Assembly (NCBI RefSeq): GCF_003334385.1
Contig: NZ_QOWN01000222.1
Strand: one strand, 5' to 3'
From: Escherichia coli
Lineage (GTDB): Bacteria > Pseudomonadota > Gammaproteobacteria > Enterobacterales > Enterobacteriaceae
DNA: 246 nt
How positions within the stretch are numbered: the stretch's first letter is position 1; each line of letters starts with the position of its first letter. This document shows, piece by piece, positions 1-246 of the stretch. The notes below the pieces were generated by a model. It was not told where the DNA came from. It was given only the letters and a program-made list of their open reading frames with translations, and searched no databases. The position numbers were made by a program, and so were the translations under genes.

Positions 1-29
1 ATACATGATCAAATACTCCTTACATAAAT

Positions 30-36
30 AAGGTGA
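30..36 (+). promoter_or_regulatory. Shine-Dalgarno-like ribosome binding site (AAGGTGA) for the transposase start codon
   Basis: Seen in sequence: purine-rich AAGGTGA at 30-36, about 4-5 nt upstream of the ATG at 41. The same frame is closed upstream by TAA at 29-31, so ATG 41 is the first start codon in that frame after a stop. Confidence 0.55.
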
Positions 37-40
37 ACAA

Positions 41-246
41 ATGGAACTTAAAAAATTGATGGAACATATTTCTATTATTCCCGATTACAGATAAGCCTGG
101 AAAGTAGAGCATAAATTGTCAGGCATCCTACTATTGACTATTTTTGCCGTTATTTCTGGTGCAGAAAGTTGGGAAGATATAGAGGATTTTGGGGAAACAC
201 ATCCCGATTTTTTGAAGCAATATGGTGATTTTGAAAATGGTATTCC
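41..246 (+). pseudogene. ISAs1-family transposase (H-repeat-associated protein), N-terminal region, interrupted by an in-frame TAA at 92-94; the frame continues past the 3' window edge
   Basis: Manual translation from ATG 41 gives MELKKLMEHISIIPDYR, then a stop, then [50 protein letters not shown] in the same frame. From memory this matches the conserved N-terminus of enterobacterial ISAs1-family transposases (for example the E. coli YhhI/YbfD/YdcC H-rpt proteins), which have Gln where this sequence has the stop. The only stops in this frame in the window are at 29-31 and 92-94. No alignment was run; the identification is recalled. Confidence 0.7.

Follow-up and report, generated by a model that had tools for sequence, protein, structure and literature searches.

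What do the 40 nucleotides that precede the start codon of this transposase gene contain? An earlier note on the window (the whole 246-nucleotide stretch of Escherichia coli DNA that was analyzed here) took them for the AT-rich, untranslated leader of a transposase gene of the ISAs1 family, and held that they probably contain both the left end of the insertion sequence and the transposase promoter. Alignment of the copies of the element shows that a defective H-repeat copy (H-rptC2, which is ybfL; ISEc1, ISAs1 family) in the RhsC locus has a leader of 143 nt, and that bases 1-40 are the part of it next to the ATG. They are internal to the element and constitute its translation-initiation region. 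The explanation as a whole is in our judgment highly probable, the mechanism proposed below much less so. The features of the window are the following.

1-40, plus strand: leader end, the last 40 nt of the 143-nt 5' untranslated leader of H-rptC2/ISEc1 (ybfL), from copy alignments and the K-12 match
7-10, no strand: GATC (Dam site), one base 5' of AATACT, at element nt 110
12-17, plus strand: candidate -10-like hexamer AATACT, part of the pair assigned in the SELEX study; invariant in 21 of 21 leaders; 8 of 12 match for the pair
16-35, plus strand: hairpin of anti-SD CTCCTTA (16-22), loop CATAAA (23-28) and SD arm TAAGGTG (29-35), with a U-U mismatch (17:34) in the window copy
30-35, plus strand: Shine-Dalgarno (SD) sequence AAGGTG, 5 nt before the ATG, from the sequence and the copy alignment
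41-246, plus strand: 5' part of the transposase ORF (ybfL pseudogene), start codon at 41-43, TAA at 92-94

Identity and genomic setting of the copy

By megablast, the window was found in 5,211 of 5,426 complete E. coli genomes, at a median of 5 places per genome. Its top match was ybfL of K-12 MG1655, at 99.6% identity over 246 nt, and none of the 5,426 genomes held a 246/246 match. Compared with one K-12 record, the window has a single difference, at position 190; compared with NC_000913.3, it has three, at 190, 204 and 211. At these three positions it carries the bases of ybfD where the ybfL of NC_000913.3 differs, a pattern compatible with gene conversion between tandem copies. In K-12, the window corresponds to the 5' end of ybfL, annotated as an ISAs1 family transposase with an internal stop, and the gene order around it is rhsC, ybfB, ybfO, ybfC, ybfQ, ybfL and ybfD. 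The gene is the middle one of three tandem H-repeat (ISEc1, ISAs1-family) copies, ybfQ, ybfL and ybfD, which lie 3' of rhsC in the RhsC locus and are the H-repeats H-rptC1 to C3, ybfL being H-rptC2. The intact H-rpt copies of K-12 are ydcC (H-rptE, at RhsE) and yhhI (H-rptB, at RhsB). A plasmid-borne copy (protein) of 97.9% identity carries the ISEc1 family annotation. Near-identity to the K-12 copies, together with linkage to rhs, identifies the window copy as H-rpt/ISEc1. A search of Rfam with the 2.9-kb H-rpt array returned no family.

The ORF that begins at position 41 reads MELKKLMEHISIIPDYR*, with the in-frame TAA at 92-94. This TAA replaces the CAA (Gln18) of the intact copies, which makes the copy the ybfL pseudogene. 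The assignment to the ISAs1 transposases (DDE enzymes encoded by a single ORF) is given by the score against the NCBIfam profile NF033564 (ISAs1 family transposase) and by the PGAP annotation. YdcC scores 416 bits against this profile, for which the cutoff is 70 bits, and PGAP labels the gene of the window an ISAs1 family transposase. The peptide of the window itself matches the start of the profile, the 50 aa past the stop codon corresponding to profile positions 1-40. On the strength of the NF033564 match and the identity to K-12 ybfL, bases 1-40 are indeed the untranslated leader of an ISAs1-family transposase gene, as the earlier note had it. It was also correct in stating that 40 AT-rich bp precede the ATG at 41-43, as the GC content of 1-40 is 27.5%; the string that it quoted, TACATAAATAAGGTGAACAA, occupies 21-40. 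The neighboring coding bases are even richer in AT (22.5% GC for both 21-60 and 41-80), hence the composition marks neither a boundary nor a signal. The GC content is 33.7% for the whole window, 28.7% for the complete 143-nt leader and 40% for the whole element.

Inside the ORF, about 150 nt past the ATG, a terminator-like hairpin TTGGGGAAACACATCCCGA is located at 189-207, followed by TTTTTTGAAG (T-run to 217). One such hairpin was found, against 0.1 expected. The difference from K-12 at 190 sits in the stem of this hairpin, where it turns a C-G pair into a U-G pair.

The leader region is an ordinary and already known one. It belongs to a long-described, apparently immobile IS relic of E. coli K-12.

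Ends of the element

Elements of the ISAs1 family are 1.2-1.5 kb in length and have terminal inverted repeats of about 14-22 bp with CAGGG ends. Two sets of alignments located the boundaries, one of all five K-12 copies and one of 21 leaders that belong to E. coli, E. albertii, E. whittamii, Escherichia sp. and Pseudocitrobacter. Coordinates are on L001, in which window position 1 is 5001 and the ATG is at 5041. An exact-pattern scan over one genome per species gave 14 further related stretches and one unrelated (L020, an archaeal MAG); of the related ones, several are MAG contigs and the others belong to E. albertii, E. whittamii, Escherichia sp. and Pseudocitrobacter.

In more than 10 genomic contexts, the homology among the copies starts at CAGGGAAAGATCA (L001 4898). 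This point precedes window position 1 by 103 nt, and wherever the left end is intact the homology breaks off at the identical CAGGG. The distance from CAGGGAAAGATCA to the ATG is 143 nt in ybfL and ybfQ, one less than the 144 nt of ydcC and yhhI. The left inverted repeat, CAGGGAAAGATCACGTAACGCT (CAGGGAAAGATCACG...), occupies L001 4898-4919, which is 103 to 82 nt upstream of window position 1. The right end, ...CGTAATCTT(G/T)CCCTG (...ATCTT(G/T)CCCTG), is found 10 nt past the stop codon. It is the inverted-repeat partner that the earlier note had asked to be sought at the far end; the two ends form an imperfect inverted repeat, with 13-17 matches over the first 22 positions. The element measures 1290 bp in ybfL and 1291 bp in both ydcC and yhhI. 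The latter value equals the length of H-rpt that Zhao et al. reportedly gave in 1993. Size and terminal repeats of the element are thus those of the ISAs1 family, with both ends outside 1-40. More distant plasmid-borne ISAs1 members (45-52% amino-acid identity) have a homologous left end, CAGGG[CT][AG]AGATC[AG][CT]GAACGTTTTTTGA, or other CAGGG-type repeats.

The left end of the IS was expected within 1-40, and the earlier note had itself named a left boundary outside this interval as the observation that would speak against it; the boundary lies 103 nt further upstream in all copies, and the expectation is thereby refuted. That 1-40 hold the left inverted repeat, with the transposase promoter partly inside, has next to no probability. 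A -10-like hexamer does occur at 12-17, and a promoter that lies partly in the left repeat is an established property of many IS elements, but the repeat sits at L001 4898-4919, bases 1-40 are internal leader that all 21 copies conserve irrespective of the flanking DNA, and no part of 1-40 is complementary to the right end. The practical gain is a correction: with the boundary of the element outside the window, an annotation of 1-40 as inverted repeat would be wrong.

The other mark that the earlier note had proposed to look for, a flanking direct repeat, is absent. No direct repeat of 8-10 bp flanks any of the copies examined (ybfL, ydcC, yhhI, L005, L012, L018 and L021), whose flanks share 2-5 of 8-10 bases. 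Missing target duplications are expected of old or recombined copies, and leave the family assignment by the transposase unaffected. They also fit the report that H-rpt transposition has not been observed (PMC3032704).

Several arrangements of the copies were also observed. In head-to-tail arrays (L001 4518-6187, L005 1156-1357 and L013 about 4590-4620), a 3'-truncated H-rpt copy abuts the intact CAGGG of the next copy, the truncations being at element nt 380, 201 and 31. These arrays would fit events directed by the left end, for example deletion of adjacent DNA or insertion of one copy into another already resident, and they also mark CAGGG as the functional terminus. At L001 6167-6215, the third copy (ybfD) is without the first ~24 nt of the left end and directly follows the right inverted repeat of ybfL; this copy has also lost an internal segment, and its right end is a variant one (CAGGACAAATTTACG in reverse complement). 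The MAG contigs L015, L016, L017 and L019, labeled Nanosynbacter, Planococcaceae, Bacillota and Streptococcus, contain H-rpt DNA with no or very few differences from the E. coli copies, and in L015 and L016 the match includes E. coli flanking sequence. The H-rpt DNA in these contigs is probably contamination or the product of mis-binning.

A predicted hairpin over the Shine-Dalgarno sequence

Intact copies have AAGGAG as the SD sequence and one more A before the ATG. In ydcC and yhhI, this sequence is part of a 7-bp hairpin (CTCCTTA/TAAGGAG) with a predicted energy of -8.0 kcal/mol (z of -2.0 to -2.4 in a 60-nt context and -4.2 in a 36-nt context). The hairpin of the window copy is weak (-3.5 kcal/mol, z of +0.25) and not distinguishable from shuffles, due to an A-to-T change in the SD that leaves a U-U mismatch. 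In ybfD, a C-to-U change preserves a G-U pair, with an energy of -5.1 kcal/mol. Among the 21 ISEc1 leaders, the changes in the hairpin are one-sided or break the outermost pairs, and the count of compensatory changes is 0.

The same hairpin arrangement is found directly 5' of the ATG in six relatives with otherwise diverged leaders, which are an E. hormaechei element, ISKpn31, a Photobacterium element, a V. scophthalmi element, ISAs12 and the element of Salmonella pBL661. The stems in the relatives are CCTCCA/TGGAGG, CTCCT/AGGAG, CTCCC/GGGAG, TCCCT/AGGGA and CTCTC/GGGAG. At 45-52% amino-acid identity, the pyrimidine arm tracks the SD variant of each relative, and in one case both sides have changed together, from T-A to C-G. 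In ISPa60 and ISRm21, the SD is likewise covered, by unrelated hairpins. RNAalifold on a MAFFT alignment of the hairpins recovered only 3 pairs, as the loop lengths differ. We also evaluated occlusion of the SD against a composition-matched control, in which the SD was fixed and the upstream 45 nt were shuffled. In ISEc1, the pairing of the SD was not significantly above this control (the fraction of shuffles at least as paired was 0.19-0.24), and only ISPa60 stood out. On balance, structure prediction and the relatives make it plausible that the SD-covering hairpin is real and conserved.

The palindrome at 16-35 might instead operate at the level of the DNA or on the opposite strand, as a protein-binding site or as a weak terminator of leftward antisense transcription. 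The minus strand is terminator-like in ydcC and yhhI, where the 7-bp stem is followed by TATTTGAT, yet the stem contains only 3 G-C pairs and the T-run is poor. Furthermore, the arm that varies among the relatives follows the SD variant (AGGAG, GGGAG, AGGGA or TGGAGG), as pairing with the ribosome-binding site predicts. We consider a role of the palindrome as DNA or in antisense transcription improbable.

Candidate promoter, Dam sites and a proposed mechanism

Shimada et al. 2014 documented by genomic SELEX-chip that the RpoD holoenzyme binds the ybfC-ybfQ spacer in vitro (PMC3946193). The pair TTTTCA-17-AATACT was assigned to this spacer in silico in the same work, which used 60-mer probes every 105 bp (PMC3946193). 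The signal has a resolution of ~100 bp, element DNA makes up just part of the spacer, and the leaders of ybfQ and ybfL, which are identical across TTTTCA-17-AATACT, are inseparable by the probes. In the leader of the window copy, the candidate -35 TTTTCA is at L001 4989-4994, 12 to 7 nt upstream of window position 1, and is separated by the 17-nt spacer from AATACT. The predicted transcription start is near A24, in the loop of the hairpin. Relatives have TATACT or TATGCT at the position equivalent to AATACT, and TGTGATC-N-[TC]AT[AG]CT at the equivalent place relative to the hairpin.

Consensus scans at the 9-of-12 level gave no sigma-70-like site in window 1-40 or in the leaders of ybfL or yhhI. 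A relaxed scan at 8 of 12 yielded 4 pairs in the leader versus 3.7 +/- 2.3 in shuffles, which is the chance level. The claim that the transposase promoter resides in 1-40 may at best be half right: the -10-like AATACT is inside, whereas TTTTCA is outside the window and the hexamers match at chance level. A promoter partly inside 1-40 is plausible. The sole 9-of-12 hit, TACACA-17-CATAAT in ydcC, was rejected, as its -10 is the hairpin loop and the start would fall inside the SD; its key positions A2 and T6 vary between copies (CATAAT, CATAAA, CCTAAT and CCTAAA). Sigma-S SELEX peaks near yhhI and ydcC are about 0.5-1.5 kb upstream and are hence uninformative.

The element has only 3-4 GATC sites; that of ydcC has 3, two of them in the leader. 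GATC-A-AATACT is present in 18 of the 21 ISEc1 leaders. A GATC one base from AATACT, in 18/21 copies and in relatives, is what the sequence of a Dam-regulated promoter would comprise, and the transposase promoter of IS50 is regulated via GATC sites (PMC4265352).

A second GATC is located in the left inverted repeat (L001 4906-4909, element nt 9-12) and is likewise kept in 18/21 ISEc1 leaders. It is also seen in the left ends of relatives at 45-52% amino-acid identity (L007, L008, L009 and L026); the right repeat has GATT. The leaders of these relatives are only ~85-95 nt in length (L007 470-564, L008 523-618, L009 520-603 and L026 385-473), and their order is left repeat, a conserved TTTGAC, two GATC as a small inverted repeat, TAT[AG]CT, the anti-SD hairpin and the ATG. 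The ISEc1 leader has about 55 extra nt between the blocks found in the relatives.

For active copies, we tentatively propose a weak sigma-70 promoter, TTTTCA-17-AATACT, that starts transcription inside the hairpin and confers protection from read-through, at a likelihood that we set clearly short of even. From this weak promoter, whose -10 would occupy window 12-17, transcripts would begin near A24, in the loop of the hairpin. The mRNA of the element itself would then have no anti-SD arm, leaving the SD free and the message translatable. Transcripts that come from rhs or other outside promoters would carry the anti-SD arm, and their SD would be folded away and poorly translated. The Dam site beside the -10 may provide additional damping of the promoter. 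The window copy has decayed in several respects, with AAGGAG turned into AAGGTG, the hairpin weakened, one base deleted before the ATG and a stop codon in the ORF. A number of observations weigh against this proposal. An alternative -10 in the relatives (TGnGATCAT) would put the start upstream of the anti-SD arm, the variation of the hairpin within ISEc1 is one-sided or pair-breaking, pairs at 8 of 12 are as frequent in shuffles, occlusion of the SD does not exceed the shuffled control, and transposition of H-rpt is unobserved (PMC3032704).

The main rival to a start in the hairpin loop places the promoter at another site in the leader (such as TTGTAC-16-TATGTT, some 30-60 nt in from the left end), or assumes that there is none and that the gene depends on rhs read-through only. 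Bases 1-40 would then be the ribosome-binding site plus hairpin, every transcript would contain the anti-SD arm, and translation would be damped constitutively. Several equally weak hexamer pairs upstream, the well-conserved TTGTAC...TATGTT block, the conserved TTTGAC further upstream in the relatives and the location of copies directly 3' of rhs genes on the same strand all favor this alternative. However, no upstream candidate exceeds chance either, and only one motif, [TAC]AT[AG]CT, recurs in the distant relatives with constant spacing to the hairpin and the ATG. A promoter elsewhere or absent is a serious contender, to which we give somewhat less than an even chance.

The hairpin-loop start could be one part of a module conserved across the ISEc1-like branch of the ISAs1 family, made up of one Dam site in the left repeat, another directly beside a weak -10 ([TAC]AT[AG]CT), and the anti-SD hairpin with the start in its loop. 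We regard this broader proposal as possible but doubtful. To our knowledge, such a regulatory module has not been described for the ISAs1 family, and our search of the literature on IS1358 and on ISAs1 regulation found nothing relevant. Were it true, the element's own mRNA would be translatable, read-through from rhs or neighboring genes would be silent, and hemimethylation would couple expression to replication. The overall importance of the leader finding is small. The conserved arrangement of GATC, -10-like hexamer and anti-SD hairpin that is common to distant ISAs1 relatives is a modest, testable lead, one that bears on how this poorly studied family silences its transposase within transcribed rhs loci.

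The arrangement invites comparison with IS10 and IS50. In these elements, sequestration of the ribosome-binding site in read-through transcripts is said to protect from outside transcription (by Davis, Simons and Kleckner in 1985, and by Schulz and Reznikoff in 1991). As in IS10/IS50, ISEc1 has a predicted anti-SD/SD hairpin directly before the ATG and a predicted start, from a weak -10-like hexamer, inside the hairpin. Two GATC sites, one beside the -10 and one in the left inverted repeat, recall Dam control of IS10 and IS50 (for IS50, PMC4265352). Unlike IS10/IS50, ISEc1 belongs to an unrelated family, and the likeness is one of sequence and predicted structure, with mixed hairpin statistics. 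With the ISAs1 family, the element shares the NF033564 transposase, the single ORF, the length of about 1.3 kb and the imperfect terminal repeats that begin with CAGGG; it departs from this family in that the H-rpt copies that were examined are without target-site duplication and in being tied to rhs loci. As for the H-rpt/ISEc1 of K-12, the window copy differs from it by one to three bases (190, 204 and 211), and is that very element, with the same neighbors, the same internal stop and 99.6% identity.
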